DNA of 64,000 nt from Candidatus Collierbacteria bacterium RIFOXYD2_FULL_45_13. Its GTDB lineage: Bacteria > Patescibacteriota > Microgenomatia > UBA1400 > MFAQ01. The notes below the pieces were generated by a model that saw only the letters and a program-made list of their open reading frames with translations, made no database searches and had not been told where the DNA came from. Position 1 is the first letter of the stretch. Each line of letters opens with the position of its first letter. This document shows positions 11,237 through 56,748 of the stretch, one piece after another. The DNA lies in the NCBI GenBank assembly GCA_001774685.1, contig MFAS01000001.1, positions 159,557-223,556 of the forward strand, in the 5' to 3' direction. The translations under genes and the position numbers were made by a program.

Positions 11237-11266
11237 CCTTTTCCCTTACCAAGTATAATTATTTCA

Positions 11267-21553: not shown

Positions 21554-21682
21554 CTCACTCTCATCTTAACATTTTCACCCTTCAGACATATACAATATTT
21601 TTCCCAAATCTCACCAGACACGATATACTTAACTAGACTCATCGAACCAGCAACCAACAACTTAAGAACTTCTCACCAAGAC

Positions 21683-22602: not shown

Positions 22603-23253
22603 ATGCCTGAAAACATCAAGTCATCGACCCAGGAAAGTCTCGATATTTACACTATCAAAAATCATCTTGTCTTTTTAAAAGACGGCTCTTGTTCGCTTGT
22701 CCTAAAAACTACAGCTATCAACTTCAATCTGCTTTCCGAAGAAGAGCAAGATGCCACTATCTATGGCTATGCCGGCTTACTGAACTCACTCTCTTTCTCT
22801 ATACAAATTCTTATCCGATCTCAACGAAAAAATATTTCCGATTATATTAATTTGTTAGACAATCGTATTCAGATTACTCCATCTCAAAAAGTCAAAGAGC
22901 AACTTCTTTCCTACCGTCAATTTGTCAAATCTCTCGTCAAAGAAAACCGTGTTCTGGAGAAAAAGTTTTATGTCATCGTTTCCTTTTCGGCTATCGAATT
23001 GGGTGTCACCAAATCAACCTTTAATCCCATGGCCAAAACCACCCAAAAACCTCCTTTTGACATCTCCTACATTGAAGAAAAAGCTTCGATGGCTCTCTAT
23101 CCTCGGCGCGATCACATTATTCGTCAGTTCGCTAGAATCGGACTCAAGGCCAGCCAGCTCACCACAAGCGAATTGGTGACTTTGTTTTACACTATTTATA
23201 ATCAAGGCAGTGTCACTCAGGCCATCACCCCGGGCAGATCCAACGCCTCCTAA
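22603..23253 (+). CDS. VirB4 N-terminal domain encoded as a separate ORF (split VirB4, part 1)
   Basis: LDIYTIKNHLVFLKDGSCSLVLKTTAINFNLLSEEEQDATIYGYAGLLNSLSFSIQILIRSQRK follows the N-terminal pattern of VirB4/TrbE proteins: (I/L)..hhhLkDGS....h.h.Gh.F.l...E......Y..LL. Recalled from Agrobacterium VirB4 and TrbE. Confidence 0.5.
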   Translation: MPENIKSSTQESLDIYTIKNHLVFLKDGSCSLVLKTTAINFNLLSEEEQDATIYGYAGLLNSLSFSIQILIRSQRKNISDYINLLDNRIQITPSQKVKEQLLSYRQFVKSLVKENRVLEKKFYVIVSFSAIELGVTKSTFNPMAKTTQKPPFDISYIEEKASMALYPRRDHIIRQFARIGLKASQLTTSELVTLFYTIYNQGSVTQAITPGRSNAS

Positions 23254-23282: not shown

Positions 23283-25175
23283 ATGGCTTTGAACCTTTTT
23301 TCTCTTGGCAAAAAACAAAGCGTACCGCCTGCTACTGCACCTGTCTCTACACCGGTTCCTAACGTTACATCAACAAACTCTTCTTCCGTCGATCAAAAAT
23401 CTGCCGCCTCCAGTCAATCCATCCAAGATATTATTGCCCCCTCTGCCGTTGAAGTCGATTTTTCTCATATCAAAATCGACGATGTCTATATCCGCACCCT
23501 CTTCGTCACCGGCTACCCTCGCTATGTCTCCGCCAACTGGTTATCCCCCCTGGTCAACTTCAATCACTCTTTAGACATTTCCATGTTTGTCTACCCTTCA
23601 GATTCCAAGGATACCTTAGAGAGTCTCAGGAGACGCATCGCCGAGATGGAAGCGGAAATTAATACCGATATCGAACGAGGCCGCATCCCCCGTGCCGCCA
23701 CCGAAGCGGGCTTGGAAGACGCTAAAGTTCTCCAATCACAGCTGGTCAAGGGAGCCGAAAGATTTTTCCAGTTCTCTCTATATATCAGCATCTCCGCTGA
23801 TTCCGAAAAAGAACTAAACACCTCCACCGCTCAGATTCAGTCCATGTTGGCTTCTCTCTTGATTATCAGCAAAATTGCTTCCCTCTCTATGGAAGATGCT
23901 TTCAAAAGCACCCTTCCTTACTGCAAGGACAAGCTGATGTTAACGAGAAATATGGACACGACGGCTCTCTCTACTACTTTTCCTTTTACTTCCTCAGAAC
24001 TTTCTGATAACCAAGGGATTCTTTACGGCGTCAATGCCCACAACGACTCCCTGGTTATCTTCGACCGTTTCTCTCTGGAAAATGCCAACATGCTGATACT
24101 GGCCACTTCCGGTGCCGGCAAGTCATACGCTGTCAAGCTCGAGATCCTTCGCTCTCTGATGTTCGACTGTCAAGTCATTATTCTCGATCCTGAAAACGAG
24201 TATGAGATGGTCACTAAGTCTGTCGGCGGCAACTATCTCTCTTTTTCTACCAGCTCTCAACACAAAATTAATCCTTTCCAGATAGCCCGCCCCAAAGAAA
24301 GTACCGAAGATGAAATGGGTTATAAATATCTTTTTCTCATGTCTCTCCTCAAGATCATGATTGGCCAGATGGACCCTATCGAAGAGGCTACTATGAATAG
24401 GGCTCTCGTCCTGACCTATCGTCAAAAAGGCATTACCGAAGACCCAGCCACCCATACTCTCGAACCACCTCGCATGGAAGATCTTTATCGCTCTCTTATT
24501 GGTATGGAAGAATCAGTCAGTAAAACATTGGCCGCCAGACTCGAGCGGTTTGTCATGGGTGCCGTCAAGGGAATTTTCGACCAGCAAAGCAATATTGACA
24601 TCAACGCTCCCATCACCGTTTTTACTCTTCGAGATACCGCCGATGAGATTCGGCCCATCATCATGTTTATGATTCTGGACTTTGTCTGGAATGAAGTGCG
24701 AAAAAATCTTCGCAAAAGAATGCTTGTCGTCGATGAGGCCTGGTACCTCATGCGTTACGAAGACTCTGCCAAAATTCTTCAGGGCTTCGTTAAACGCGCA
24801 CGTAAGTATTACTTCGGTGTATCTATCATTTCTCAGAACGTTGATGACTTTCTTGGTTCGGCTTATGGTAAAGCCATTATCACGAACTCCGCCCTCAAAC
24901 TACTCCTCAAACAGTCATCCGCTGCCATCAACCAGATCTCCGAAGTTTTCTATCTTTCTCAAGGCGAAAAACAACTATTACTTTCGGCCGGAGTCGGAGA
25001 GGGTATTTTCTTTGCCGGTATGAACCACGTCGCCATCAAAATTATTTCCTCCGCCGATGAACATGCCTTAGCCACCAGTAAGCCTGCAGAAATTTTGGAA
25101 AGACAGAAACAAGAAAAAGCCCAAGCAGCCGCCGAAGCCGCTTCCCAAATACAACCACAGCTAAGTAATTCCTAA
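23283..25175 (+). CDS. virB4: VirB4/TrbE/PrgJ-family T4SS ATPase (split VirB4, part 2)
   Basis: DIIAPSAVEVDFSHIKIDDVYIRTLFVTGYPRYVSANWLSPLV...DISMFVYPSD matches the Gram-positive VirB4 (Orf16/TcpF/PrgJ) middle-domain pattern. Walker A is ILATSGAGKSYAVK and Walker B is RMLVVDEAWYLM. The start codon is directly preceded by TATACTTAATTC. Confidence 0.8.
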   Translation: MALNLFSLGKKQSVPPATAPVSTPVPNVTSTNSSSVDQKSAASSQSIQDIIAPSAVEVDFSHIKIDDVYIRTLFVTGYPRYVSANWLSPLVNFNHSLDISMFVYPSDSKDTLESLRRRIAEMEAEINTDIERGRIPRAATEAGLEDAKVLQSQLVKGAERFFQFSLYISISADSEKELNTSTAQIQSMLASLLIISKIASLSMEDAFKSTLPYCKDKLMLTRNMDTTALSTTFPFTSSELSDNQGILYGVNAHNDSLVIFDRFSLENANMLILATSGAGKSYAVKLEILRSLMFDCQVIILDPENEYEMVTKSVGGNYLSFSTSSQHKINPFQIARPKESTEDEMGYKYLFLMSLLKIMIGQMDPIEEATMNRALVLTYRQKGITEDPATHTLEPPRMEDLYRSLIGMEESVSKTLAARLERFVMGAVKGIFDQQSNIDINAPITVFTLRDTADEIRPIIMFMILDFVWNEVRKNLRKRMLVVDEAWYLMRYEDSAKILQGFVKRARKYYFGVSIISQNVDDFLGSAYGKAIITNSALKLLLKQSSAAINQISEVFYLSQGEKQLLLSAGVGEGIFFAGMNHVAIKIISSADEHALATSKPAEILERQKQEKAQAAAEAASQIQPQLSNS

Positions 25176-25177
25176 CC

Positions 25178-27709
25178 ATGGCCAATCACGAACAGGACAT
25201 CTATGATCTTGGACAGGTTCAAAAATATTTTCCAAAAAAATTAGAGGATCTTTCAGAACAAGAAAGAGCAGAGGCCTTACGACTTTTCAGTATAGGAGCT
25301 GGGTTTTATAACCAGTTTTTTCGAAAAGGTTCCGGTCACAAAGTAACCCCCTATACTTTTCAAAAAGAAGCCTCACCGGACGAAATTCAGCAAATCATAA
25401 ATTATTTGTCGAAAGAAGAGGAGGAGGAAACCAAAAAAACCAAAACTCCGGCCAAAGAAGAGTCGTCGGTTCCACCGGAGATCGAAGGTCTTGTCGAAGA
25501 ATACCGTCAAAATCAAGAACGTCTAAACGAAGAAGAGGTCAAATCCAGTGGTCAACGCACCGTCGCCGAACAAGTCAAAATTGCTCTCTCCCACTCCAAA
25601 ATCCGTGAGCAAATTATGGCCAATCGCCGAGAACGTGAAGCCGCAGGTGAAAAGTTTCAAGACCCAAACGAAGTAATCGTTAATCTGGGAGATCCAAAAA
25701 GCCAGAGTATCAACGCTGTTCTTTCCACCACCAAAAAAGCCATTGACTCTATCGCTTACACGTATCCTGGTTTTTCTTCTCTCTCAACTTCAGTTCAAAG
25801 ACAGGTCATCAACGATGCTGTTGACCTAAGTTTAGCTGGTATTGATGATTTAGACGTCGCTATTCAAACCGCCTCCATCCAACTAGGTGTTGATAGGATT
25901 CCCTCTAGCTACATTTCTGAGGTAGCTCGTGAGCTAAGTGATATAGAGAAAGATTCCGAAGAGCTGGAAGAAAGTCTTTCACAAAACGAATATGCCATTG
26001 ACAGTTTAAAAGCTAAAACCACACTATCTGACTCGGAACAACAGCAGTTAAATAAACTTCTTAAAGAAAATAACATTCTCACCTCCGGACTTAACAAGGC
26101 TTCTACCCGTTTCATCGATTTTGTCGATTCACAGAATGAAAGATATGGTCAATATCTTGCCGAAAAAAGGGACCACCTCAGAACCAACCCGGATCTGGAT
26201 GAACTTACCCTTGCCGCAAACACCAAAAGAGACAATCTTCACGAAAATCTTCTCAAAAACGGAGTTACTCCTAGAGGTTTTTCCGATCTGGACAAAATTG
26301 CCGGTTTGGTCACCGTCATTCAAAAAGACATTCCTGGCCTTCATCAATATGCCAGTTACGAAGGAGCTCAAGCCGCCGCCATCATTGGAGGAGGTCAGGG
26401 CCAGGCAATACTGGCCTATTCCAAAGGAGTCACCGGTGGAGTACTACGCCAAGCGGAAAAATATGCCGCTGCTAATCCCAATTCTGCTACAGCCAAATTT
26501 CTCGCCAACAATACTAAGGTTTTTCAAGCCGCCAGACGCTCCATTCGTGAAATAGAAAATTCCAAACTTGGAAAAGATGTTCTTCAGGCAGTCAGTAAGG
26601 GCAATCAAATCATCGGTATCGTCACCAATCCAGTCGGCGCTCTCAAACAATGGGCCGGTCAAAAAGCCGGCGAACAAATAGCTAAGAGGTTGGTTGAAAG
26701 ATTCGGGAGTGAGGCTCTCAAGAATGCCGCCAATCTGTTGTTGAAGGAGGGTCTCAAAGATGGAGTCAAAAAGCTAGCCTCTCAAGCTCTATCCAAAGTG
26801 GCTATCAAAGTTGCTACATGGGCGGCTTTAAAGTTAGGAATCAGTCTTACTGCCGAATCTTTGAACGCTATCATGCCCGGGCTAGGAGTTATTGTCGACA
26901 TTGTTGTTCAAGCCGTAATATATATCGCCGAAAAAACTATTGGTGCTGGCTATCAAGCCATGCAAAGTACGGCTAGAGAAATCTGGGGAGAGGAACTCAA
27001 ACCCCGCGATTTACTCGCTCCTCTGGCAGCATTGGGTGGACTCGCGGTTGCTCTATTTGGTACATTGAAGGCTGCTCAAAGAACCGCCCAAATAGCTGTA
27101 GTATCCGCCGCAGGTATCGTTATAGGATCTGTCAGTATTCTGTTAATTTATCTTTCTCTCGCCTTCCTAATTGCCCCCATGCTTTCCGCTTTGGTGCAAC
27201 TTGATAGTTTGGAGAAGGTTAAGTATTCCGAATATGCCGCGCCAGTCACCGCTACCAACTGTTCCAACGTACCTTGGCCCTTTTCAGACACTCATCCAAT
27301 TACACAAGGCCCTCGTCAAACAACTACCAGTTGTACCCACGCCGGCGACATCGCAGAATCTGCTGATTTCAGTGTCACTGTCGGAACTCCTATATTAAGC
27401 ATTTTCTCCGGAAAGATCGACTTCGCCGGATGGAGCGATGATGGCTATGGAAACAATGTTAAAATGACGGCAACCACCGACACGGGCACAAGCTTTACTG
27501 TCATTTACGGTCACTTCTCCAAAGTTTCAGTGACTACAGGTAGTACTGTTCAAGTTGGAGCTCAGTTGGGCTTATCGGGAAGCACTGGCTACAGCACAGG
27601 CCCTCATCTCCATCTCGGCTATCGTGGTATCGAATACAACTCGTGTCCTGCTGGCAATTTTAGAATTAACGAAAACTGTTGCACAACCGATACTTGCAAT
27701 CAGCCATAA
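25178..27709 (+). CDS. membrane protein with C-terminal M23 (LytM-type) peptidase domain; candidate T4SS cell-wall hydrolase (VirB1 analogue)
   Basis: C-terminus HAGDIAESADFSVTVGTPILSIFSGKIDFAGW...GYSTGPHLHLGYRGIEY carries the M23 HxxxD and HxH motifs. Two or three TM helices precede it around residues 600-660. The N-terminal region of about 600 aa is cytoplasmic and coiled-coil rich. Confidence 0.7.
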   Translation: MANHEQDIYDLGQVQKYFPKKLEDLSEQERAEALRLFSIGAGFYNQFFRKGSGHKVTPYTFQKEASPDEIQQIINYLSKEEEEETKKTKTPAKEESSVPPEIEGLVEEYRQNQERLNEEEVKSSGQRTVAEQVKIALSHSKIREQIMANRREREAAGEKFQDPNEVIVNLGDPKSQSINAVLSTTKKAIDSIAYTYPGFSSLSTSVQRQVINDAVDLSLAGIDDLDVAIQTASIQLGVDRIPSSYISEVARELSDIEKDSEELEESLSQNEYAIDSLKAKTTLSDSEQQQLNKLLKENNILTSGLNKASTRFIDFVDSQNERYGQYLAEKRDHLRTNPDLDELTLAANTKRDNLHENLLKNGVTPRGFSDLDKIAGLVTVIQKDIPGLHQYASYEGAQAAAIIGGGQGQAILAYSKGVTGGVLRQAEKYAAANPNSATAKFLANNTKVFQAARRSIREIENSKLGKDVLQAVSKGNQIIGIVTNPVGALKQWAGQKAGEQIAKRLVERFGSEALKNAANLLLKEGLKDGVKKLASQALSKVAIKVATWAALKLGISLTAESLNAIMPGLGVIVDIVVQAVIYIAEKTIGAGYQAMQSTAREIWGEELKPRDLLAPLAALGGLAVALFGTLKAAQRTAQIAVVSAAGIVIGSVSILLIYLSLAFLIAPMLSALVQLDSLEKVKYSEYAAPVTATNCSNVPWPFSDTHPITQGPRQTTTSCTHAGDIAESADFSVTVGTPILSIFSGKIDFAGWSDDGYGNNVKMTATTDTGTSFTVIYGHFSKVSVTTGSTVQVGAQLGLSGSTGYSTGPHLHLGYRGIEYNSCPAGNFRINENCCTTDTCNQP

Positions 27710-27714
27710 CGATT

Positions 27715-28722
27715 ATGATAAAAATAAATACCCATCTTTCCAAAAAGACGATCCTATTCGGAACTGCTATCCTCTTGCCTCTCGTAATTCTCACAAGTTA
27801 TTACTTGGCCTCCCGAACATCAAAAAACCAAGCAGCAACCATCAATCCTGAACCTGTTTCCACCAAAGAATCCTCTCCTTCTGCCGATCAAAATCCTTTC
27901 CAGAACAAATCCACCAAGTTAGAAGTAAATTGGGAAAATGCCAAAATCAATTTTCAAAAAGGGAACTACCCTACGTACGAGACAACACCTATTATCAATG
28001 ATGTAAATGTCGACTCGTTTGCCTCAATTCTCGGTTTTTCCGGCACAGATAGAAAGACATTACCAGACAATGATGCAATCTGGAAAAAAGGAAAGGAAAC
28101 ACTCCTTTATATTTCATCGGAGAACACTTTGGATTATCAAAATGAAAAGGTCTATGTTGGACCTTCCAGATTCAACGAAGCCAACCTTATCAACCGGGCC
28201 AAACAATATGCCTCCAATCTGTTCTCTCATACGGAGCTAGTACCTTCTCCTGTTACCTATTTCGGGGATAATGCCTATGAGCCAAATATTACCAATGTCA
28301 ACAACTCACTCTTAGCCCAAATCAACTTTAACCAAACTATAGGCGGCCATCTTGTAATACCGGCCAATCTAAAATCAGAGTACTTCATTTCGTTGTTTAT
28401 TACCCCTGATCTAACTATTCAAACATTCAAAAGCTCTCCCGGCTATCAATCGGCCAGAATTGCTTCAGGGGCTTCACTGGCAGATTTTGATAAGCTTAAG
28501 ACTATTCCCGCTAACTATTTTAGAAAAATAACAAACATGCCATTAGAAATAGAATCTATCATTACTTTCTCCAAAAAACTATATTATTCTGTCTCCTCTG
28601 TTGACATTGCTTATACAATTATTGGCTCCAAGGCCGTACCTGTTTACTATATCGACGGCACTGTTTACGGAGATAACATAAAAGTCAGTGACCATGTTGT
28701 TTACTTGGCGCCCTTGAACTAG
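27715..28722 (+). CDS. membrane-anchored extracytoplasmic hypothetical protein (335 aa)
   Basis: N-terminal TM anchor (ILFGTAILLPLVILTSYYLA). No known domain. Confidence 0.5.
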   Translation: MIKINTHLSKKTILFGTAILLPLVILTSYYLASRTSKNQAATINPEPVSTKESSPSADQNPFQNKSTKLEVNWENAKINFQKGNYPTYETTPIINDVNVDSFASILGFSGTDRKTLPDNDAIWKKGKETLLYISSENTLDYQNEKVYVGPSRFNEANLINRAKQYASNLFSHTELVPSPVTYFGDNAYEPNITNVNNSLLAQINFNQTIGGHLVIPANLKSEYFISLFITPDLTIQTFKSSPGYQSARIASGASLADFDKLKTIPANYFRKITNMPLEIESIITFSKKLYYSVSSVDIAYTIIGSKAVPVYYIDGTVYGDNIKVSDHVVYLAPLN

Positions 28723-29831
28723 TTCTGCGTCCTCACCGGCATCACCACCTGAATCCAGCCATCATCATCTTCTCGCTTAAAGACACTTGGCTTCAACTCT
28801 CCTTCAGTCTCCCATACCACCCTTTCACTATTATTCACTCCAAGGTAGTCTAGTAAATATCTGGCATTGAAAGCCACTGTCAGCCCGTCTCCTTCAACTT
28901 CCGTTTCGATCTCTGTTGAATTACTTCCAAGTTGGCTACTTTCAGCTTTTACGATTAGCTTTTCTCCTTCAATTGCCATCTTCACAATGTTGGCATTGTC
29001 CCTGGCAAACAAATTGGCTCTTTTGACGGCCTCTAATAGCTCTTCTCTGTTAAAGATGGCTTTTGTTGAATAGGTGTTCGGCATTATCTGTTGGTAGGGT
29101 GGAAACTCCCCTGCAATCAGTCGAGATGAGACTTCCATGTCGGCGATAGAAAATATTACCTGTTGATTATCTTTATCAAACTCAATTCCAAAAGAATCTT
29201 CTCCTGTTTCGGCCAACACTTTAGATACTTCCTGAAGAGACCTTGCCGGAAGAATAAACTTTGTGTTTTTCTCAACACTGGTTTTTACCACGTTAAGTTT
29301 GTCGACACATAGTCTATATCCATCCGTAGCCGCCAATACTGTTCTGTTTTCTTCCAAGCTCCAGAGAACTCCTGTCAACACCGGCCTAGTATCGTCCTTA
29401 GCCGCCGAAATACATACCCTATCCATCTTTTGCCGAAACTCACCACTCTTCAAAGTAATTTGAGTTTTCTTTGCTCTAGGAATGCTTGGAAAATCTTCCA
29501 CTCCTTGGCCTACCACCTCAGCATTAATTCCTTTCGCCAAGACTTTCAAAGAATTCTTTTCTGCCGAAAGAGTCACATTTCCTGCTGGCAGACTGGCAAC
29601 TAGTTCTCCAAAAAGTTTTGCGGGCACTACCATTTCACCTTCTTCGTCAATCTTGGCCGGTAACTTCACCCAAAAACTCACTTCCAAATCCGTTGACACC
29701 AAATTCACTTCATCCTTTGTTATTTTCAAAAGTACTCCCGAAAGAATTGGAAGCTGAGGTCTTACACCAATACCTCTATTTACAATTCCCAGATATTTCT
29801 TTAAATCCGTTGACTGTACAGTTATCTTCAT
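28719..29831 (-). CDS. dnaN: DNA polymerase III beta subunit (sliding clamp)
   Basis: MKITVQSTDLKKYLGIVNRGIGVRPQLPILSGVLLKI... is the typical DnaN N-terminus. Three-domain length of 370 aa. A TATACT hexamer lies 8 nt upstream of the ATG. Confidence 0.9.
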   Translation of the reverse strand: MKITVQSTDLKKYLGIVNRGIGVRPQLPILSGVLLKITKDEVNLVSTDLEVSFWVKLPAKIDEEGEMVVPAKLFGELVASLPAGNVTLSAEKNSLKVLAKGINAEVVGQGVEDFPSIPRAKKTQITLKSGEFRQKMDRVCISAAKDDTRPVLTGVLWSLEENRTVLAATDGYRLCVDKLNVVKTSVEKNTKFILPARSLQEVSKVLAETGEDSFGIEFDKDNQQVIFSIADMEVSSRLIAGEFPPYQQIMPNTYSTKAIFNREELLEAVKRANLFARDNANIVKMAIEGEKLIVKAESSQLGSNSTEIETEVEGDGLTVAFNARYLLDYLGVNNSERVVWETEGELKPSVFKREDDDGWIQVVMPVRTQN

Positions 29832-32886: not shown

Positions 32887-33000
32887 CTTCCCCTACGGGG
32901 ATCAACGAGACTCACTAAACTCGAGATGACAAATAAATAATACTTAACTCCAATAATGCTAATTATTGACTTCGGGTATCTTATGGCATAAATTAAATAT

Positions 33001-33837
33001 ATGCCCAAAAAAGTAATTGATCCTACCAAGATCGCTATTTTTCAGAAGAAAGAAATCCGCAAAACCATTTACAAAAACGAATGGTGGTTTGTGATTACTG
33101 ATATTGTAGTGGCCTTAACCGATTCCGTTCAACCTGTCGGATATATAAAAGATATGCGACGCAGAGATGAACAACTCTCCAAAGGGTGGGGGCAGATCGC
33201 CACCCCCCTTTCAATCGCAACCAGTGGAGGTAATCAAAAGATAAATTGTGCCAATACAGAAGGCATCTTCCGAATCATCCAATCGATCCCCTCTCCCAAA
33301 GCCGAACCATTCAAGCGTTGGCTGGCCAAAGTCGGCTACGAAAGAATCCAAGAAATAGAAGATCCGGAACTCGCCCAAAAAAGAGCCAGAGCCATTTACA
33401 AAGCCAAAGGCTACCCCGATAGTTGGATAGAAAAACGCATAAGGTCAATCGCTATTCGTGAAGATCTCACCGAACAATGGGAAATTCACGGAGTCAATCT
33501 CCAAAAGGAATATGCCATTCTTACGGCCGAAATCTCCCAAGCCGCTTTTGGAGTCACTCCCTCACAACACAAACAGATAAAGGGATTGGAAAGACAAAAT
33601 CTCCGGGATCACATGTCCGACCTGGAACTACTCTTCTCCATGCTAGGGGAAGCTTCCACTACCGCCATTACCAAGACCGAACACCCCAAAGGTTTCACCG
33701 AAAACAAAAAGGTCTCTCGTCGAGGTGGAAAGATCGCCGGAGATGCTCGGGTAAACCTGGAAAAAGAAATCGGCCAGAGTGTTGTCACACCCAAAAACTT
33801 CCTCCCCAATCAAAATGACAAAAAGAAACTAAAATAA
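33001..33837 (+). CDS. Bro-N domain protein (phage antirepressor-like, KilA-C-type C-terminus)
   Basis: EIRKTIYKNEWWFVITDIVVALTDSVQPVGYIKDM...GNQKINCANTEGIFRIIQSIPSPKAEPFKRWLAKVG is the Bro-N signature. The gene is inserted between rnpA and yidD. Confidence 0.7.
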   Translation: MPKKVIDPTKIAIFQKKEIRKTIYKNEWWFVITDIVVALTDSVQPVGYIKDMRRRDEQLSKGWGQIATPLSIATSGGNQKINCANTEGIFRIIQSIPSPKAEPFKRWLAKVGYERIQEIEDPELAQKRARAIYKAKGYPDSWIEKRIRSIAIREDLTEQWEIHGVNLQKEYAILTAEISQAAFGVTPSQHKQIKGLERQNLRDHMSDLELLFSMLGEASTTAITKTEHPKGFTENKKVSRRGGKIAGDARVNLEKEIGQSVVTPKNFLPNQNDKKKLK

Positions 33838-34224: not shown

Positions 34225-34962
34225 ATGCTCGCACCAATTAACTACGTCCTCTATCAAATCCTAGTCTTCTTTTATAGTCTTTTTGGTGGCAATCTCGGTT
34301 TGCCTATTATCGCCATCACCCTTATCACCAAATTCCTATTAATCCCCTTCGTTCTTCCTTCGATGAAGTCTGCGAAAAAAATGCAGGAACTCAAGCCGGC
34401 TTTGGATAGACTCAAAGAAAAGCACAAGGACAAAAAAAAACTCCAAGTGGCTCAAATGGCACTCTACAAAGAGCAAGGTATCAACCCTGCCGCCGGCTGT
34501 CTACCTCAGATAGTTCAAATTATCATTCTTATTTCCCTCTACCAGGTCTTCATGGAGTTCATCAAACAGCCTTCCATCGGAGGTCTTCTCGTAAATCCTC
34601 ACTTCCTTTATCTGGATCTTACCAAGCCGGACCACACTTATATCATGCCTGTGCTGGCCGGAGTCACTCAATTCATCTTTTCGCTTATGATGCAGTCCGG
34701 CGTCGAGTCCCATATTCAAAACCCCAAACAGAAAGAAGAAAAGAAAAAAGAAGAGAACAGTTTGGAAATGGCCACCAGTATGCAGCAACAGATGCTCTAC
34801 ATGATGCCCGTTATGACCGTTATCATCTCCCTGAACTTCCAGTCTGGGCTTATCCTCTACTGGGTCGTCTCCACCATTTTCTCGATTGTTCAGCAATACT
34901 ACTTCTCCGGCTTGGGAGGTGTAAAACCCTTCCTTCTTAAATTAAGGATTATCAAACAGTAA
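34225..34962 (+). CDS. yidC: membrane protein insertase YidC (short form)
   Basis: PIIAITLITKFLLIPFVLPSMKSAKKMQELKPALDRLKEKHKDKKKLQVAQMALYKEQGINPAAGCLPQIVQI is the YidC/Oxa1 core. Position after yidD. Confidence 0.8.
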   Translation: MLAPINYVLYQILVFFYSLFGGNLGLPIIAITLITKFLLIPFVLPSMKSAKKMQELKPALDRLKEKHKDKKKLQVAQMALYKEQGINPAAGCLPQIVQIIILISLYQVFMEFIKQPSIGGLLVNPHFLYLDLTKPDHTYIMPVLAGVTQFIFSLMMQSGVESHIQNPKQKEEKKKEENSLEMATSMQQQMLYMMPVMTVIISLNFQSGLILYWVVSTIFSIVQQYYFSGLGGVKPFLLKLRIIKQ

Positions 34963-49099: not shown

Positions 49100-49897
49100 A
49101 TGGATATCTTTACCCTATACATCTACCAACCTTTCTTCAATATCTTGGTCGGTCTTTACTGGTTTGTGGGGCAAATTCTTCCTTCTCCGGACATGGGCAT
49201 CGCTGTTATTCTTTTCGCTGTCGCCGTTCGGATTATTCTTCTTCCAATAGATCTCATAGGAGAACAGTCTGACGAAGAAAAGCTTCAAATTGCTCTCAAA
49301 GTTAAAAAAGTCAAAAAAGAATTCGCTTCCGATCCTGTTCGGCAAAAAGAAGGCATCAGACAGTTAATGCGCCAAAGCCCGGGAGCTATCTTTTCCGAGG
49401 TTTTTACCATCACTGTTCAAGTGTTAATCATTTTAATCCTATACCGTATTTTTACGACAGGCTTGGAAGGTGCGGATATGCACCTTCTTTACAAATTTAT
49501 GCCTTCGGTCCGCCAACCCATCAACCTCATGTTCCTTGGAAAATACGACCTATCCCATACTAACAGTGCCCTGAACCTCCTTCAGTCTGTAATGATCTGT
49601 CTCAGTGAAATAGTTCACCTCTATTTTGAACCTGTTAGGCCTTCGAGAAAAGACTTCCTTTCTCTGGTGATCATCCTTCCCATTGTTAGTTTCCTCATTT
49701 TTATGTTCCTTCCGGCAGGCAAAAAGGTCTTTATTATCACCTCGCTCGCCTTCGGCATCGCCCTCAAAATCGTTAGACAAATTCTCTATCTTACTTACTC
49801 TTTTAGGCATCAGACTCCTGAAAACATCTCCCAGCCTGCCCTCTCTACACCCGCACCGTCAATCGGGGCCTCTACGACCACCCCTCCAACAGCTTAA
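49100..49897 (+). CDS. second YidC/Oxa1-family insertase paralog
   Basis: LYIYQPFFNILVGLYWFV...GIAVILFAVAVRIILLPIDLIGEQSDEEKLQIALKVKKVKKEFASDPVRQKEGIRQLMRQSPG follows the YidC core pattern. Confidence 0.6.
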   Translation: MDIFTLYIYQPFFNILVGLYWFVGQILPSPDMGIAVILFAVAVRIILLPIDLIGEQSDEEKLQIALKVKKVKKEFASDPVRQKEGIRQLMRQSPGAIFSEVFTITVQVLIILILYRIFTTGLEGADMHLLYKFMPSVRQPINLMFLGKYDLSHTNSALNLLQSVMICLSEIVHLYFEPVRPSRKDFLSLVIILPIVSFLIFMFLPAGKKVFIITSLAFGIALKIVRQILYLTYSFRHQTPENISQPALSTPAPSIGASTTTPPTA

Positions 49898-49920: not shown

Positions 49921-50532
49921 ATGGCTGATTTTGATAAATTGGTAGTTTCCTTTCTCGTCGACGAAGTTGTTGGCGGTTTCTTTATTTCCGTCCCACCCGG
50001 GCATGTCGCCTGTGTTTATGATCGAGGTGCCGGAGTTCTTAAACGAGTTTGGGGACCGGGGCTTCATCTCAAGATCCCTTTTTGGCAAATAGCCAAACTC
50101 TTTAATGCTCAAGTTCTGGAATACACCATTAGGCACGGGTTCGACCTTTCCGTGAAGGAAGCTCTTGGTGACGAGCCTGTCATTGCCACCACCAAGGATA
50201 ACAAAACCATCTCTATCGAGGGCTCAATTCTCTTCAGGTTGGATAAGGCTAACGCCCCTCTTCTTTGGGAGAACATTGGGGACAACTTTGTATCCAAGGT
50301 TATTCGTCCATATTCCAGAAGCCGGATCGCTTCTGCTTTCAGCAAGTTCGGTTCCAAAGAGATCGGTTCAGAGCGATCCAAAATCGAAGGAATGCTAAAA
50401 AGTGAACTAAACGAACTTTTTCATAGCAGTGCTTTAATCATTGAGAATGTTCTGTTCTCCGAAGTTAAGATTGCTGATCCGGAAGCCCACCATTCCGGGA
50501 AGAGTATCCTTTCTGCTACGCCCACTGTTTAG
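49921..50532 (+). CDS. SPFH/Band-7 (prohibitin-like) domain protein
   Basis: GHVACVYDRGAGVLKRVWGPGLHLKIPFWQIAKLFNAQVLEYTI is the SPFH N-terminal signature. Confidence 0.65.
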   Translation: MADFDKLVVSFLVDEVVGGFFISVPPGHVACVYDRGAGVLKRVWGPGLHLKIPFWQIAKLFNAQVLEYTIRHGFDLSVKEALGDEPVIATTKDNKTISIEGSILFRLDKANAPLLWENIGDNFVSKVIRPYSRSRIASAFSKFGSKEIGSERSKIEGMLKSELNELFHSSALIIENVLFSEVKIADPEAHHSGKSILSATPTV

Positions 50533-50553
50533 TTTTTTTAATATACTTAACTC

Positions 50554-53500
50554 ATGGCCTTGCCCAAATACTCTGTTTTGCAGATACGTCCAGCCAAAGA
50601 CTCCCTCACTGGGCAGGCGGCCTTTATCGAATTTCTGGCTTCACTCAGAACGGCTCTAAAATCAGGTTTCCTGGATAGGCTTCTTGGAACGTATGAAACT
50701 ATCTGTCTTGAAATTGTCAATTTAAATCAGACTACCTTTTTTATTCTTGCCTGTCCGGAACGACTCGAACATTTAGTACGCGCTCAGATTGCAGCCCAGT
50801 ATCCCACCGCACTCATTACCCCTATGAAAGATTATCTATCCGACTGGCTGAACCACGGTCAGACCGCTCTCGGTCAGCTTGTTCTCACCGGTCCCTCATA
50901 TCTTTCACTCAACAACACCTTGGACGATAAAGTCGACCAAATGGCCTCCATTCTTGGCAGTCTCGCAAGAATTCCTGCCGGTCAGGCTGGAATAATCCAG
51001 ATATGTCTTTTTGCTGCTCCGAAGAACTGGCAAAAATCCGCCCGCGCACAGCTGGAAGTTGTTACCCCCGCTACAGCCACCGATGCCGCCAAAAGTAAGC
51101 CTAGTCCCTACAAAGCCATTATCGAAAAAAAATTAATTTATCCGGCTTATTCTTGTGATATACGTCTGGCGACTATTGCACACGACCAGCAAACGTCCAA
51201 ACAACTCCTGTCTCAAATTGCAGCCGCGTTCGGTACTTATGCTCTTTCAGAAGGTAATAGCTTCAAACTAAAAACACCCAAGCACTCTGGGTCACTCAAC
51301 AAGCTTCGTCAGATGATATTGGATCGCTCTGCCAAGTATGCGAACCAATATCAATATCTCAACTATGGCGAAATTACCGCCATGTTCCACCTTCCTGGGG
51401 TATTACTGGCACCCATCAAGGGAATTGCGTGGGGTAAGACCCTAAAAGGTGAGGCTCCCACCAACCTACCGGTTGATGAGAATCTTCCGGAGAACGAAAG
51501 ACATCTGTACAATTTTTTTGCCAAAACCGAGTACAAGAATCACTTAGCAATCTTCGGTATGAAAAAGGGGATCGATCGCCTTCGCCATACTTACATTTTG
51601 GGGAAGTCGGGAACCGGTAAATCAACCCTCATCGGCCGCATGGCCATTAACGATATTCAGCACGGAGAAGGGGTTGCCTTTGTTGATCCTCATGGTGACG
51701 CAGCCGAAGTTCTTTTAGATTATATTCCAGAGAGCCGTATCGATGAAGTTGCTTATTTAGACCCTTCAGTTCCCGGCATATCTTTTTGGATGAATCCTCT
51801 CTATGTCAAAAACCCTGCTCAGGGTGAAATGGTTGCCTCCAGCATTGTCTCTATTTTTAGCAAACTTTACGGTAATTCCTGGGGACCTCGTCTGGAGTAT
51901 ATATTAAGAAATACCTTACTAACCCTGGTTTACAAGCCGGAAACTACCTTAGCGGATGTACCCCGTATACTTACCAACAAAGATTTCCGCGAAAAAGAGT
52001 GTTTGATCCACGTTACCGACCCGATTCTTGTCAATTTCTGGCGTGACGAATACGATAAGTATTCCGAAAAGTTTCAAACCGAAGCCATTGCTCCGATCTT
52101 AAATAAAGTTGGTCAGTTTGTCACCTCTCCTACCATCCGCGATATCATCAATCATCCCAAAAGCACCGTCGATTTTGAGGAGATGATGAACACCGGCAAG
52201 ATCATTATCCTGAATCTACCCCAGGGAAAGATAGGAGAAGACAATGCCGCCTTACTTGGAGCCATGTTCATTTCTCAAATCCAAATTGCGGCGATGAATC
52301 GGGCCCATGTGGCCGAAGAAAAAAGGAGAGATTTCTTTCTTTATGTCGATGAGTTCCAAAACTTCGCCACCTCTTCCTTTGTGAAGATCCTTTCCGAGGC
52401 TCGGAAATATAGGCTTGGATTAATCCTAGCCAATCAGTACATCGCACAACTGCCAGAAGAGATTCAAAATGCCATTTTTGGCAACGTCGGAACTGTTATG
52501 AGTTACGTTGTAGGGGCCTCGGACGCCGATCGAATCGTAAAAGAATTGAATAATCTGTACACAGCTGACGATCTTGTTGGTTTGGGTAAATATCAACTGG
52601 CTATGAAAATGTCTGTCGACTCCCAAATGACCCAACCTTTCTCCTCATATGGATTACCATTACCTGATACCCGAACCCAGCAAAAAGAAAAGGTTCTCGC
52701 CGCCACCTACGAGAAATACTATCGCAAAATAGAGCCTATGGATATGTCCCAGGTTACTGCCATTATGACCCCGGCACCCAAACGATATACCGAACCACCT
52801 TACATCCCAAAAGCGCTTAGAGAACCTTCCGCTGCAATCTCAGATCAAAAAGAAGCCACACGAAGTTATGAAGACACTCAGCGTTTTAACAAGCCGCCTT
52901 TTGTAAGTGTCTCTACTTCCACTACCGTGCCACCAAAACTTCCATATCAGCCCCAACTCCCTCCCACTCCGGCATTATCCAAGCCGAACCCATTCAAAAT
53001 TCCTCCATCAGGATCTCCTCCGGTTTCTTCGCCACCCGTAGTGGATCGTCGTGGCCTGCCCATTTCACCCCCCACAAAACCGGTCGACTCAATAAAACCA
53101 CTAACTGAGAACCGAGAACTGAGAACTGAGATCTCTACCTCGACCTCTCTCAAAGAACCTTCCTTGGAAGAACTCGATGGTCTTCGCAAACAGGGTTTGC
53201 GCCCCAGTGTCGTCGGCTGTTTCTTAAATAATAAAAAAATTCTTCTAGCTTACCAAAAATCGTTTAATCAATGGACTCTTCCTCAGGGGGGAGTGGACAA
53301 CGGAAAAACCATTAAGGAAACGTTCTTTCAGGAAATGGGAGAGGAGGTCACGGAGGACTTTATCAAAACATGTAGTGAAGATATCAAACTTGTCGCTGTC
53401 GATAAAATCGAATTTCCCCCAAGCAAACAAGGACTCAGAGATATGGTTACTGATTCAGACGAACCCGTAGTGATGAAAGGGAAATATTACTATTTCTATA

Positions 53501-53985
53501 CTAGCGATGCCCAATCAACCGATATAACTATCGGAGCTAGCGAATTCGACGATATAAAATGGCTAAATTACGACGAAGCGTATAAACTAATTAAAGAGAC
53601 CAACTCCGGCGGCAGGTTGAGGACGATCACCAACCTTCTCCGAGTGCTCATGGAAAAGGGTCTTCTGTCTACCAATCAACCTTCAAAACATGGATCCGAA
53701 CCGGAACCAAAACCAGAAAGACCAAAAACTAATACTTCCTCCGGAAGATACTCTCCTGGCGAGTCCAGAAACTTTCAGAACGGTAGTTTCGGATCCGGAC
53801 CCATCGCCGGTGACATCAGGAGTCAGTTACACCCCGCCTCAGTCGTGGGGGGCAGACCAGTCAGCGGTCCCGATGGGAACTCCAACAGTCGAACCCCTTC
53901 AAACTCCATCTCGGAATCCTCAACTCTCGGAATCGACGACTCCACCAAGCCATCAGGAGACTCTACCCCTCCCTCCGCGTACTGA
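50554..53985 (+). CDS. VirD4/TrwB (type IV coupling protein)-like P-loop NTPase with long disordered Pro-rich region and Nudix-like C-terminal module (1143 aa)
   Basis: - Walker A HTYILGKSGTGKSTLIG, then HGEGVAFVDPHGDAAEVL...VAYLDP...FWMNPL. This parallels TrwB/TraD motifs (GTTGSGKS...VIVDPNGD...ILNP).
- Walker B FFLYVDEFQNF ... RKYRLGLILANQ.
- No N-terminal TM helix.
- C-terminus WTLPQGGVDNGKTIKETFFQEMGEEV is a degenerate Nudix-box-like segment.
- The start codon is preceded by TATACTTAACTC. Confidence 0.55.
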   Translation: MALPKYSVLQIRPAKDSLTGQAAFIEFLASLRTALKSGFLDRLLGTYETICLEIVNLNQTTFFILACPERLEHLVRAQIAAQYPTALITPMKDYLSDWLNHGQTALGQLVLTGPSYLSLNNTLDDKVDQMASILGSLARIPAGQAGIIQICLFAAPKNWQKSARAQLEVVTPATATDAAKSKPSPYKAIIEKKLIYPAYSCDIRLATIAHDQQTSKQLLSQIAAAFGTYALSEGNSFKLKTPKHSGSLNKLRQMILDRSAKYANQYQYLNYGEITAMFHLPGVLLAPIKGIAWGKTLKGEAPTNLPVDENLPENERHLYNFFAKTEYKNHLAIFGMKKGIDRLRHTYILGKSGTGKSTLIGRMAINDIQHGEGVAFVDPHGDAAEVLLDYIPESRIDEVAYLDPSVPGISFWMNPLYVKNPAQGEMVASSIVSIFSKLYGNSWGPRLEYILRNTLLTLVYKPETTLADVPRILTNKDFREKECLIHVTDPILVNFWRDEYDKYSEKFQTEAIAPILNKVGQFVTSPTIRDIINHPKSTVDFEEMMNTGKIIILNLPQGKIGEDNAALLGAMFISQIQIAAMNRAHVAEEKRRDFFLYVDEFQNFATSSFVKILSEARKYRLGLILANQYIAQLPEEIQNAIFGNVGTVMSYVVGASDADRIVKELNNLYTADDLVGLGKYQLAMKMSVDSQMTQPFSSYGLPLPDTRTQQKEKVLAATYEKYYRKIEPMDMSQVTAIMTPAPKRYTEPPYIPKALREPSAAISDQKEATRSYEDTQRFNKPPFVSVSTSTTVPPKLPYQPQLPPTPALSKPNPFKIPPSGSPPVSSPPVVDRRGLPISPPTKPVDSIKPLTENRELRTEISTSTSLKEPSLEELDGLRKQGLRPSVVGCFLNNKKILLAYQKSFNQWTLPQGGVDNGKTIKETFFQEMGEEVTEDFIKTCSEDIKLVAVDKIEFPPSKQGLRDMVTDSDEPVVMKGKYYYFYTSDAQSTDITIGASEFDDIKWLNYDEAYKLIKETNSGGRLRTITNLLRVLMEKGLLSTNQPSKHGSEPEPKPERPKTNTSSGRYSPGESRNFQNGSFGSGPIAGDIRSQLHPASVVGGRPVSGPDGNSNSRTPSNSISESSTLGIDDSTKPSGDSTPPSAY

Positions 53986-54684: not shown

Positions 54685-54736
54685 TTGACAAAATTTTCTC
54701 TTTTTATAAAATAGCAATCGAGACGGAAGAGTGCTA
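54685..54736 (+). promoter_or_regulatory. groESL promoter (TTGACA-16-TAAAAT) with overlapping degenerate CIRCE inverted repeat
   Basis: TTGACA at 54685..54690 and TAAAAT at 54707..54712. TAGCAATC-N9-GAGTGCTA at 54712..54736 matches CIRCE (TTAGCACTC-N9-GAGTGCTAA) with one mismatch in the left arm. Confidence 0.5.
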
Positions 54737-54808
54737 CTTTTCTGGTATACTCATCTCTGTCAATGTTCGTCTCCAGTTAGTTTTTATCATTTAACACAAA
54801 TAACCAAC

Positions 54809-56748
<1,940 letters not shown>

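Follow-up and report, generated by a model that had tools for sequence, protein, structure and literature searches.

To our knowledge, the T4SSs of CPR/Patescibacteria have neither relaxases nor a known substrate, and the one species in which this was tested cannot grow epibiotically without its T4SS. VirD4/TrwB-type T4CPs, e.g. TrwB of R388 and Cagβ of H. pylori, are built around a P-loop NBD with an all-alpha insertion and carry an N-terminal transmembrane domain as well as variable C-terminal domains (PMC7434980). T4CPs lacking the transmembrane domain are an already recognised class, exemplified by TraJ of pIP501 (PMC7434980). In Patescibacteria 5,713 "T4CP homologues" have been counted, only a minority of them near virB4, and in S. 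epibionticum the T4CP homologue is dispensable while the T4SS is essential (PMC12102498); Wang et al. described the Se T4SS cluster without a recognisable coupling protein (PMC10633639). A Nudix protein is tied to conjugative FtsK-like DNA translocation in the case of Pif, the conjugal-immunity protein of pSAM2-type actinomycete ICEs (PMC3218068).

The window analysed here, 64,000 nucleotides of a Collierbacteria (CPR) chromosome, contains an ORF that starts with ATG and encodes 1,143 residues. The product is a real three-part fusion, in which an N-terminal domain of predicted VirB4-like fold is followed by a VirD4/TrwB-like ATPase and by an RppH-type Nudix module that is partly degenerate (Table 1). 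An earlier note on this DNA had described an anchorless VirD4/TrwB-type ATPase fused to a Nudix-like C-terminal module with a degenerate box, and this description holds: all motifs it quoted are present, i.e. RHTYILGKSGTGKST (residues 344-358), VAFVDPHGD (374-382), YLDP (401-404), NPL (414-416) and YVDEFQNF (597-604) in the ATPase and GGVDNGKTIKETFFQEMGEEV (912-932) in the Nudix region. No transmembrane helix is predicted in the 1,143 residues, as no 19-residue window reaches the Kyte-Doolittle threshold of 1.6 (maximum 1.44). The linker between ATPase and Nudix module (~140 residues) consists of 28-50% Pro/Ser/Thr, and in the close clade of the window protein identity amounts to 91-97% in the ATPase, 74-92% in the Nudix domain, 45-78% in the linker and 18-67% in the C-terminal tail.

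Table 1. Features of the ATPase-Nudix gene, its product and its surroundings (positions in the window)
Feature	Positions	Strand	Residues	Basis or remark
Whole ORF	50554..53985	+		DUF8128, T4CP-like ATPase, disordered linker, Nudix module, disordered tail
N-terminal soluble alpha/beta domain (DUF8128), predicted VirB4-N-terminal-domain-like fold	50554..51453	+	1-300	PF26449; AF2; Foldseek
T4CP-like P-loop ATPase	51508..52728	+	~319-725	Pfam TrwB_AAD_bind, TraG-D_C; Foldseek
Walker A, GKSGTGKS	51601..51624	+	350-357	conservation
Predicted all-alpha insertion, where T4CPs have their all-alpha domain	51814..52191	+	421-546	model; TrwB_AAD_bind match
Walker B, FFLYVDE	52333..52353	+	594-600	conservation
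Pro/Ser/Thr-rich disordered linker	52741..53163	+	730-870	composition; low conservation
Nudix domain, RppH / Ap4A-hydrolase subgroup	53185..53658	+	878-1035	Pfam, NCBIfam, PDB sequence matches
Degenerate Nudix box, GGVDNGKTIKETFFQEMGEEVTE	53287..53355	+	912-934	E918K, R926Q, G933T
Disordered Ser/Pro/Gly-rich C-terminal tail	53671..53982	+	1040-1143	composition; least conserved part
Band_7/SPFH gene, 21-nt gap upstream	49921..50532	+		Pfam; synteny; conserved neighbour in Collierbacteria-type locus
TATACT -10-like hexamer and 6-nt spacer abutting ATG	50542..50553	+		probable leaderless-mRNA promoter
220-aa protein, one N-terminal TM helix	54002..54664	+		synteny; conserved neighbour of Nudix-bearing orthologs
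Gram-positive-type chromosomal T4SS core beside dnaN/dnaA	21527..27709	+		PrgI (VirB3-like), TrsD-like, VirB4, M23 hydrolase
TrsD-like (core)	22603-23253	+		
VirB4 (core)	23283-25175	+		
M23 hydrolase (core)	25178-27709	+	843 aa	

Both Pfam and Foldseek (TrwB, Cagβ) place the ATPase closer to T4CPs than to HerA or FtsK. Of the profiles the earlier note had suggested, NUDIX is significant (see below), TrwB_AAD_bind passes narrowly (residues 344-635, 22.7 bits against a cutoff of 20.5), TraG-D_C passes just at its cutoff (22.0 against 22) and T4SS-DNA_transf stays below it in the window protein (13.8 against 20.1). Family-wide, TrwB_AAD_bind matches 57 of 59 diverse relatives (best 3.5e-19), TraG-D_C 53 and T4SS-DNA_transf 28. 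The best NCBIfam matches are TraD and the CD1115 VirD4-like models, every NCBIfam T4CP model being far below its cutoff. In Foldseek the modelled ATPase (pLDDT 85.7) matches TrwB (TMt 0.60-0.63, over the whole of TrwBΔN70) and Cagβ (TMt 0.56-0.58), both with a probability of 1.00. The Walker A residues G350, K351, S352, G353, T354, G355 and K356 are invariant in 95 homologs and nearly so in 150 diverse representatives; Y597, V598, D599 and E600 of Walker B and the FQNF following them are invariant as well, and altogether the ATPase has more than 100 invariant positions across the 95 homologs. In the structure model residues 421-546, located between the strands 409-411 and 550-554, form helices only, suggesting that the all-alpha domain typically inserted into the NBD of T4CPs is present.

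Other identities of the motor were considered. A HerA/FtsK translocase fits less well: DUF87 is below its cutoff in the window protein (21.8 against 23.2), the Pfam profile search gave no FtsK_SpoIIIE match in this protein (three of the 59 diverse relatives match, at 1e-4) and the TMt for HerA (0.41-0.48) is below that for TrwB. Signatures of a VirB4-type ATPase are likewise missing, as an AAA_10 match is absent (two of the 59 relatives have one), P-loop_TraG is weak (E 0.028) and a profile comparison with CPR VirB4 yields a probability of 13%; the VirB4 encoded in the window carries the AAA_10, P-loop_TraG and CagE_TrbE_VirB signatures, whereas the ATPase gene product has none of them. PADLOC assigns mad8 to the ATPase core (E 2.3e-14), in addition to weak HerA and DndH matches, and the DndH C-domain, TdpA and HerA are among the structural/PDB matches, which would agree with a HerA-, DndH- or MADS-type ATPase that defends against phages. 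We regard such a role as highly improbable, since T4CP profiles outscore HerA family-wide, the family is near-universal in CPR, PADLOC finds no defence component among the neighbouring genes and the locus is a conserved housekeeping region, syntenic across genera, instead of a variable island.

The first ~330 residues had been described as soluble; they are, but they are more than that, as they contain a defined Pfam domain, PF26449 (DUF8128), assigned in precomputed annotation to a 100% identical protein (P0001) and to nearly all homologs. The AF2 model of this domain alone has a pLDDT of 90.2 and a pTM of 0.88, and TrwK/VirB4 chains occupy all of the top 14 places among the Foldseek matches in the PDB (E 1e-6 to 2e-4, TMq 0.43-0.52), i.e. 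among PDB matches the predicted fold resembles only the TrwK/VirB4 N-terminal domain. Moreover, the full model aligns with VirB4 co-linearly over ~870 columns (E 5e-15), and the order of N-domain and ATPase, without a transmembrane segment, is that of VirB4 (TrwK of R388). In contrast to this similarity in fold, sequence profiles lend the VirB4-like N-domain no support: there is no Pfam CagE_TrbE_VirB match, and hhalign leaves the N-domains unaligned.

At the other end of the protein, Pfam NUDIX (PF00293) matches residues 884-1014 (E=1.2e-9; 38.7 bits, cutoff 21.1; 120/134 positions covered). The best NCBIfam matches of the module are RppH models, and PDB sequence matches comprise RppH (4s2w) and Ap4A hydrolase (1f3y) over ~130 residues, so that the profile match points to a Nudix fold. 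As in RppH/NudH and Ap4A hydrolases, a W-x-[FL]-P-Q-G-G motif precedes the box; unlike these enzymes, the module is fused to a 730-aa ATPase, its box deviates from GX5EX7REUXEEXGU in three places (E918K, R926Q, G933T), and its sister lineages have repeatedly lost catalytic glutamates. The box is perfect in 33 of ~106 orthologs, and where the glutamates are lost the domain and its LWQLPQGG motif persist. In the window clade purifying selection acts on the domain, as its identity exceeds that of the linker, and the fusion is ancient, dating from a single event and retained in every deep branch of the sampled clade. Since many orthologs have a canonical box while others have repeatedly seen it decay, the module probably persists for the sake of binding and can do without hydrolysis. 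In the window protein it could still be an enzyme, since the three metal-binding glutamates E927, E930 and E931 are intact.

These glutamates and the perfect boxes elsewhere, together with close stand-alone homologs (L029, E 1.6e-43) and a long disordered linker that would allow the Nudix domain to act independently, also fit a fusion of convenience, in which an active RppH- or Ap4A-type hydrolase with a housekeeping job is merely tethered to the motor without mechanistic coupling. We consider this improbable: the fusion has survived in all deep sampled branches despite the loss of catalytic glutamates, the box of the window clade has lost the E and R residues that usually support the catalytic helix, and orthologs occupying the same slot of the chromosome have an S1 domain, or nothing, in place of the Nudix domain, this swap at the same position suggesting a role tied to the motor. 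Elsewhere in the family, paralogous classes bear a treble-clef zinc finger, Saccharibacteria orthologs have K/R-rich tails and distant orthologs possess one N-terminal transmembrane helix. The ATPase-Nudix architecture had been thought undescribed, and we found no account of it in the literature searched, yet it is common in public metagenomes, being present in 98 of the 120 closest protein clusters; the wider family exceeds 5,000 clusters across CPR. Proteins of this type evidently belong among the 5,713 "T4CP homologues" (PMC12102498). Public annotations of these ~1,000-residue motors as "MutT / 8-oxo-dGTP pyrophosphatase" or "NUDIX domain-containing protein" are misleading.

Should the ATPase be a working T4CP, the T4SS core of the window would be the machine to which it couples. 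The gene starts 25.4 kb past the VirB4 stop codon (not 23 kb, as first stated) and lies in a housekeeping block conserved across genera, consisting in the window of SBP, YidC, Band_7, the gene itself and GroES/EL, which speaks against a T4SS role, as do the published findings cited above on the T4CP homologues of Patescibacteria and on the Se T4SS cluster, and in most loci PrgI-TrsD-VirB4 is not found within ±10 kb of the gene. A link to the CPR T4SS, which the ATPase may serve, is suggested by four loci (L012, L013, L015, L018) in which the ortholog adjoins PrgI-TrsD-VirB4-M23 divergently beside dnaA, and by the many MAGs with ATPase and VirB4 genes on the same contigs. Among the window ORFs scanned there is no relaxase-like Pfam match. 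The order of Band_7/SPFH gene and ATPase gene is kept in L001, L003, L005, L006 and L007-L010. The protein encoded downstream, a candidate membrane partner of the ATPase, has homologs at this position in L007-L010 and counterparts of equal size in L001 and L005, but no Pfam, NCBIfam or PADLOC match.

Alternatively, the T4CP-derived ATPase may have been exapted as a cytoplasmic, T4SS-independent motor for housekeeping DNA or RNA transactions, e.g. on incoming or damaged DNA or in RNA turnover, with Nudix, S1 and basic tails as nucleic-acid handles. This would suit the vertical housekeeping synteny in Microgenomates, the RNA association of RppH-type Nudix and S1 modules and the position of the gene in 27-32 of 80 species-level loci (Saccharibacteria, Nomura-, Kerfeld- and Buchananbacteria), where the genes ahead of it on the same strand encode DprA, TopA and a sigma70_r4/HARE-HTH DNA-binding protein and the gaps often measure 13-100 nt. 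The dprA-topA adjacency is, however, an old gene pair, and part of this context may therefore be inherited synteny. Exaptation is left possible in the study that found the Se homologue non-essential (PMC12102498). Nonetheless, we rate an exapted motor as rather unlikely, as several lineages have the gene directly beside PrgI-TrsD-VirB4, distant orthologs are membrane proteins by virtue of their N-terminal transmembrane helix, and a VirB4-like N-domain would be odd in a purely cytoplasmic enzyme.

Three long ORFs have the 12-mer TATACTTAAYTC immediately in front of their ATG, VirB4 (23283), DUF4012 (37463) and the ATPase gene (50554), and allowing up to one mismatch it occurs five times against 0.62 expected, a number reached in none of 100 shuffles. 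Thus, the motif proposed to be common to this gene and virB4 is indeed shared, but the co-regulation read from it does not stand: a -10-like hexamer lies 4-12 nt ahead of the start codon in 14 of 36 window genes (p~2e-16), the exact 12-mer also precedes a non-T4SS gene, and orthologs retain TATACT only, 6-7 nt from the ATG, with differing spacers. TATACTTAAYTC is no T4SS signal but the probable leaderless-promoter layout of the genome.

Based on our findings we propose as the most likely reading, with a confidence slightly short of even, that the protein is a hexameric motor derived from T4CPs, that it contains its own receptor for a nucleotide or nucleic acid and that its N-domain docks it to the membrane and the T4SS. 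DUF8128 would take the place of the usual transmembrane domain and recruit the motor to the membrane and the chromosomal PrgI-TrsD-VirB4 machine, possibly with help from the SPFH protein encoded next to it or from the small transmembrane protein. The VirD4/TrwB-type motor, with intact Walker A/B motifs and the all-alpha insertion, is presumably hexameric and would burn ATP. The C-terminal module may serve as substrate or ligand receptor, as the variable C-terminal domains do in classical T4CPs, an idea suggested by that variability and by the S1 swap, zinc finger and K/R-rich tails in the family; the Nudix domain might bind a nucleotide or a nucleic-acid 5' end, hydrolysis being secondary or lost in the window lineage.

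Such a motor would share with VirD4/TrwB-type T4CPs the NBD with its insertion, the best Pfam/NCBIfam matches, the best ATPase superposition (TMt 0.56-0.63) and a variable C-terminal extension, but it differs from them by its 300-aa VirB4-like domain in place of the membrane domain, by scores far below every curated T4CP equivalog, by its chromosomal housekeeping locus without a relaxase nearby and by the enzyme-derived nature of its C-terminal module. TraJ of pIP501, which is paired with the membrane protein TraI, is likewise an anchorless coupling-type ATPase of a Gram-positive-type (MPF-FATA-like) system, and small membrane proteins are also encoded on either side of the window gene; descriptions of TraJ in the literature consulted, however, include neither a large structured N-terminal domain nor a Nudix domain. 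Pif, by comparison, is encoded by a separate gene on a mobile element.

The thousands of CPR "T4CP homologues" have so far been counted merely as HMM hits. The family can now be described by its anatomy, with an N-domain that is VirB4-like in predicted fold, a motor resembling VirD4 and C-terminal modules that are interchangeable and related to nucleotides or nucleic acids, which leads to testable ideas on the ligand and the docking site of the motor and bears on the divergence of VirB4 and VirD4. In a bolder reading, which we deem quite improbable, DUF8128 ATPases would constitute a third, unrecognised branch of T4SS motors that combines VirB4-type docking with a VirD4-type translocase and whose Nudix, S1, zinc-finger or basic modules would recruit nucleic acid, possibly RNA via its 5' end, without a relaxase. 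If this is true, the essential relaxase-less T4SS of CPR would gain a nucleic-acid or nucleotide substrate.

The target, a single ORF of 1143 residues in which all strings quoted in the earlier note were found, contains an ATPase that is coupling-protein-like. In Pfam, TrwB_AAD_bind matches aa 344-635 (22.7 bits, cutoff 20.5), TraG-D_C scores at its cutoff and DUF87/HerA falls just under it; NCBIfam and PDB sequence searches matched TraD, VirD4-like models and TrwB to the P-loop region. As these Pfam scores are marginal, the family as a whole was checked. HMMER, run exhaustively against 1.84 billion representatives with aa 1-730 as query, yielded 21,138 clusters at E<=1e-3, of which 5,773 reach E<=1e-30. 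Among 59 diverse representatives TrwB_AAD_bind matches 57 (best 3.5e-19), DUF87 54 (best 1e-12), TraG-D_C 53, T4SS-DNA_transf 28, FtsK_SpoIIIE three and AAA_10 two. For three diverse members the best NCBIfam models were TraD and the VirD4-like CD1115, all far under the curated cutoffs. The AlphaFold2 model of aa 1-740 (pLDDT 85.7) fits TrwB most closely (TMt 0.60-0.63, rmsd 4-7 Å), then Cagβ (0.56-0.58), with DotL (0.53) and HerA (0.41-0.48) below these, and its insertion at aa 421-546 is predicted to consist of helices only, where type IV coupling proteins (T4CPs) bear their all-alpha domain. Across 95 homologs both Walker motifs and over 100 further positions are invariant. Family-wide Pfam matches, the superposition on TrwB and Cagβ and the position of the all-alpha insertion support the T4CP-like ATPase proposed earlier, the target being closest to T4CP models. 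A HerA/FtsK identity was rejected on Pfam scores, Foldseek and the scan of the 59 representatives, and a function in defence, rejected with PADLOC, is highly improbable.

The N-terminal 300 residues are predicted to form a VirB4-like domain. The database protein identical to the target carries a precomputed Pfam annotation as DUF8128 (PF26449), and the best Foldseek matches of the full model (E-values 5e-15) are co-linear alignments of ~870 columns to TrwK/VirB4 of R388, in which an N-domain is followed by the ATPase. Because of this co-linearity aa 1-310 were modelled separately (pLDDT 90.2, pTM 0.88). TrwK/VirB4 chains constitute all top 14 PDB matches of this model (E 1e-6 to 2e-4, prob 1.00, TMq 0.43-0.52 over ~380-400 columns), after which unrelated alpha+beta folds appear at E >= 4e-4. 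In profile-profile comparisons the N-domain of the family could be aligned neither with the VirB4 of the window, nor with a CPR VirB4 profile, nor with the TrsD-like protein, and a close relationship to VirB4 or TrsD in sequence was rejected; the VirB4 likeness, as modelled, stands at the fold level.

The description of the N-terminus as soluble holds in that no transmembrane (TM) helix is predicted there, but the region is a structured DUF8128 domain with a VirB4-like predicted fold. The Kyte-Doolittle maximum over the whole protein (19-residue window) is 1.44, below the usual TM threshold of 1.6, and the target is therefore predicted to lack a membrane helix anywhere. Distant orthologs (Saccharibacteria, Dojkabacteria, others) carry a strongly hydrophobic helix (KD 2-3.7) N-terminal to the same domain, and this helix is missing from the Microgenomates orthologs. 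The absence of a membrane anchor is thus lineage-specific and has precedent: T4CPs devoid of a TM domain form a known subclass and act together with small membrane proteins, e.g. TraJ with TraI of pIP501 (PMC7434980). By analogy, the conserved neighbours of the target, an SPFH/Band_7 protein and a 220-aa TM protein, may serve as partners.

Residues ~730-870, the Pro-rich segment of the earlier note, are indeed rich in Pro, Ser and Thr, as are residues 1040-1143. In between, Pfam detects the suspected Nudix module at aa 884-1014 (E 1.2e-9, 38.7 bits, cutoff 21.1), which in NCBIfam and PDB sequence searches is closest, among characterised proteins, to RppH and Ap4A hydrolases. Among the 120 closest clusters (90% identity clustering, 43-100% identical to the target) PF00293 occurs in 98 and S1 (PF00575) in seven. 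One of these proteins, P0120, bears both; P0114 (S1 end) and P0067 (Nudix end) share exactly one syntenic slot, and the same holds for P0120 and the tail-degenerate P0105. In an NJ tree of N-domain plus ATPase, Nudix-bearing proteins occur in all deep branches, which argues for a single ancient fusion that subsequently decayed, was lost or was replaced. Judging from the sequences, the fusion is old, common and decaying. Of ~106 aligned members, 33 have a Nudix box without any departure from the canonical form; that of the target, G..K..QE..EE.T, is degenerate as noticed earlier and retains the three glutamates that bind metal. In many lineages one of these glutamates (E930 to G/S/Q, E931 to A/N/K) or almost the entire box has been lost, and the domain and its LWQLPQGG motif persist in them. 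Within the clade of the target, identity amounts to 74-92% in the Nudix domain compared with 45-78% in the linker and 18-67% in the tail, indicating that the domain is under selection. An incidental enzyme fusion seems unlikely; the module may be kept chiefly as a binding unit, with hydrolysis being optional. At locus L029 a close Nudix homolog stands alone, 6.5 kb away from an ATPase that has no tail. Other tails in the family are K/R-rich (Saccharibacteria), and a treble-clef zinc finger often ends ATPase-first paralogs; all observed add-ons are of kinds that bind nucleic acid or nucleotides. The public names of P0035, P0057, P0063, P0064, P0067, P0071 and P0075, ~1,050-aa T4CP-like ATPases labelled '8-oxo-dGTP pyrophosphatase MutT (NUDIX family)' or 'NUDIX domain-containing protein', reflect the smallest domain only.

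The window covers a housekeeping region of the Collierbacteria chromosome, with dnaA, dnaN, yidC, jag, rplY, leuS, tsaD, groES/EL, pgk and gap; its VirB4 is 100% identical to a Candidatus Collierbacteria protein. Adjoining dnaN/dnaA is a Gram-positive-type T4SS core of PrgI (VirB3-like), a TrsD-like component, VirB4 and an M23 hydrolase, which agrees with the published description of Patescibacteria (PMC12102498). The TrsD-like ORF, a component reported to be abundant in Patescibacteria, has no Pfam match and is assigned by its matches to NCBIfam TrsD and to the N-terminal portion of VirB4 models.

Features of the window (coordinates within the window)
Feature	Coordinates	Strand	Length	Remark
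Large ORF	11267-14275	+	1002 aa	flanks T4SS cluster
Large ORF	14887-16674	+	595 aa	flanks T4SS cluster
hyp939	16718-19537	-	939 aa	flanks T4SS cluster
hyp658	19577-21553	-	658 aa	flanks T4SS cluster
TrsD-like	22603-23253	+	216 aa	between PrgI and VirB4
VirB4	23283-25175
M23 hydrolase			843 aa	T4SS core
dnaN	28719-29831	-
dnaA	30218-31672	-
Bro-N protein	33001-33837	+
YidC/60KD_IMP	34225-34962	+
YidC/60KD_IMP	49100-49897	+
Target	50554-53985	+	1143 aa	single ORF
GroES	54731-55120	+	129 aa	GTG start at 54731

The four large ORFs flanking the T4SS cluster have neither a Pfam match nor a P-loop and could be T4SS components or substrates. Two of them, hyp939 and hyp658, appear soluble and charged; they occupy the position divergent from PrgI, and as paralogs of the target they were rejected for lack of a P-loop. 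The family HMMs match the target alone in the window. An origin-associated GC-skew switch is expected at dnaA/dnaN; in 2-kb bins no sign change occurs there, and the skew is negative in almost all bins of positions 1-64000, whatever the gene strand. Between dnaA and yidC lies, in an otherwise housekeeping region, a protein with Bro-N, a phage/virus-associated DNA-binding domain. The two YidC paralogs lie within 15 kb, and the one with the weaker score belongs to the conserved block, where it directly precedes Band_7 and the target. The GroES orthologs have 102 residues, and the true start is thus probably an internal ATG near 54806.

A scan of species-representative genomes found 513 relatives; the analysis of gene context covered 80 loci. 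The target begins 25.4 kb past the VirB4 stop codon, in a block of SBP, a 273-aa protein, YidC, Band_7, target, the 220-aa TM protein and GroES/EL, and this Collierbacteria-type SBP-YidC-Band_7-target-GroES/EL locus recurs at L007-L011. At L012, L013, L015 and L018 a tail-less gene of ~730 aa stands beside dnaA, divergent from PrgI-TrsD-VirB4-M23, which supports a T4SS role. In 27-32 of the 80 loci, mainly from Saccharibacteria and also from Nomura-, Kerfeld- and Buchananbacteria, the gene is preceded on its own strand by Pth, DprA, TopA and a sigma70_r4/HARE-HTH protein and points towards the dcw cluster; across L039-L086 (e.g. L056, L058, L063, L065, L075), in Saccharibacteria and some other CPR classes, this conserved run ends with a TM-anchored DUF8128 ATPase facing MurG-FtsW-MraY-PBP2-MraW. 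In several loci (L039, L040, L052, L070) a second ATPase paralog lies 2-5 kb upstream. The DprA, TopA and HARE-HTH neighbours have no homolog in the window. This arrangement, together with the housekeeping synteny, supports an exapted DNA or RNA role, and a nucleic-acid motor independent of any T4SS, at odds with the gene divergent from PrgI, is a lesser but real possibility. By iterative HMM, only three of the 80 loci have VirB4 within ±10 kb, in agreement with the published 148 of 5,713 Patescibacteria VirD4-type homologues near virB4 (PMC12102498). Taken together, a receptor-motor coupled to the T4SS is the mechanism we tentatively prefer, with a likelihood not quite even. Several MAG records (L007, L009, L010, L012, L014, L017, others) are titled 'uncultured Pseudomonadales' or 'Gammaproteobacteria', with proteins named 'Spirochaetia bacterium'; these labels look wrong, since the loci are syntenic with Collierbacteria or other Microgenomates.

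Co-regulation of the target with virB4, suggested earlier from a shared start motif, could not be upheld. The 12-mer TATACTTAAYTC, significantly repeated in the window, precedes not only these two genes but, as an exact copy, also the DUF4012 gene, and the target orthologs have TATACT at the same distance with other spacers. A -10-like hexamer (TATAAT, TACAAT, TATACT, TAGAAT; e.g. at 11254, 14876, 23271, 35635, 37451, 40213, 50542) ends 4-12 nt before the start codon of 14 of 36 genes (background 1.6%, p~2e-16), and this generality led us to reject a T4SS-specific regulatory motif. These genes have no Shine-Dalgarno sequence, Shine-Dalgarno cores are not enriched overall (three of 36 genes vs 9.5%), and a scan of the window for sigma-70 promoter and terminator consensus gave counts no higher than in shuffles. 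The layout thus reads as a leaderless-transcript signature rather than T4SS co-regulation and suggests that leaderless or near-leaderless mRNAs are widespread in this Collierbacteria genome. Copies with one mismatch occur at 32939, near the Bro-N gene, and at 21624-21635 (+), inside the long PrgI ORF called from TTG 21527; no start codon follows the latter, which leaves the true PrgI start uncertain.

Quinonero-Coronel et al. (2025) counted VirD4-type homologues in Patescibacteria, usually far from virB4, found relaxases mostly absent, stated that exaptation cannot be excluded and did not mention Nudix (PMC12102498), and Wang et al. (2023) described a T4SS cluster of S. epibionticum without recognisable coupling and relaxase proteins (PMC10633639). 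A 2025 FEMS review holds nothing on this architecture, 'DUF8128' appears in no paper of the literature searched, and Nudix and 'coupling protein' are found together there only as separate proteins, e.g. Pif of pSAM2. The architecture is thus undescribed in that literature, as had been supposed, but the fusion itself is common, as its frequency among the closest clusters indicates. The feature is genuine and was rightly noticed; it is no singular oddity, as the target belongs to a huge, catalogued and uncharacterised CPR family. Its anatomy appears to be new, with an N-domain resembling that of VirB4, a motor resembling VirD4 and an RppH-type Nudix that is decaying and interchangeable with S1.
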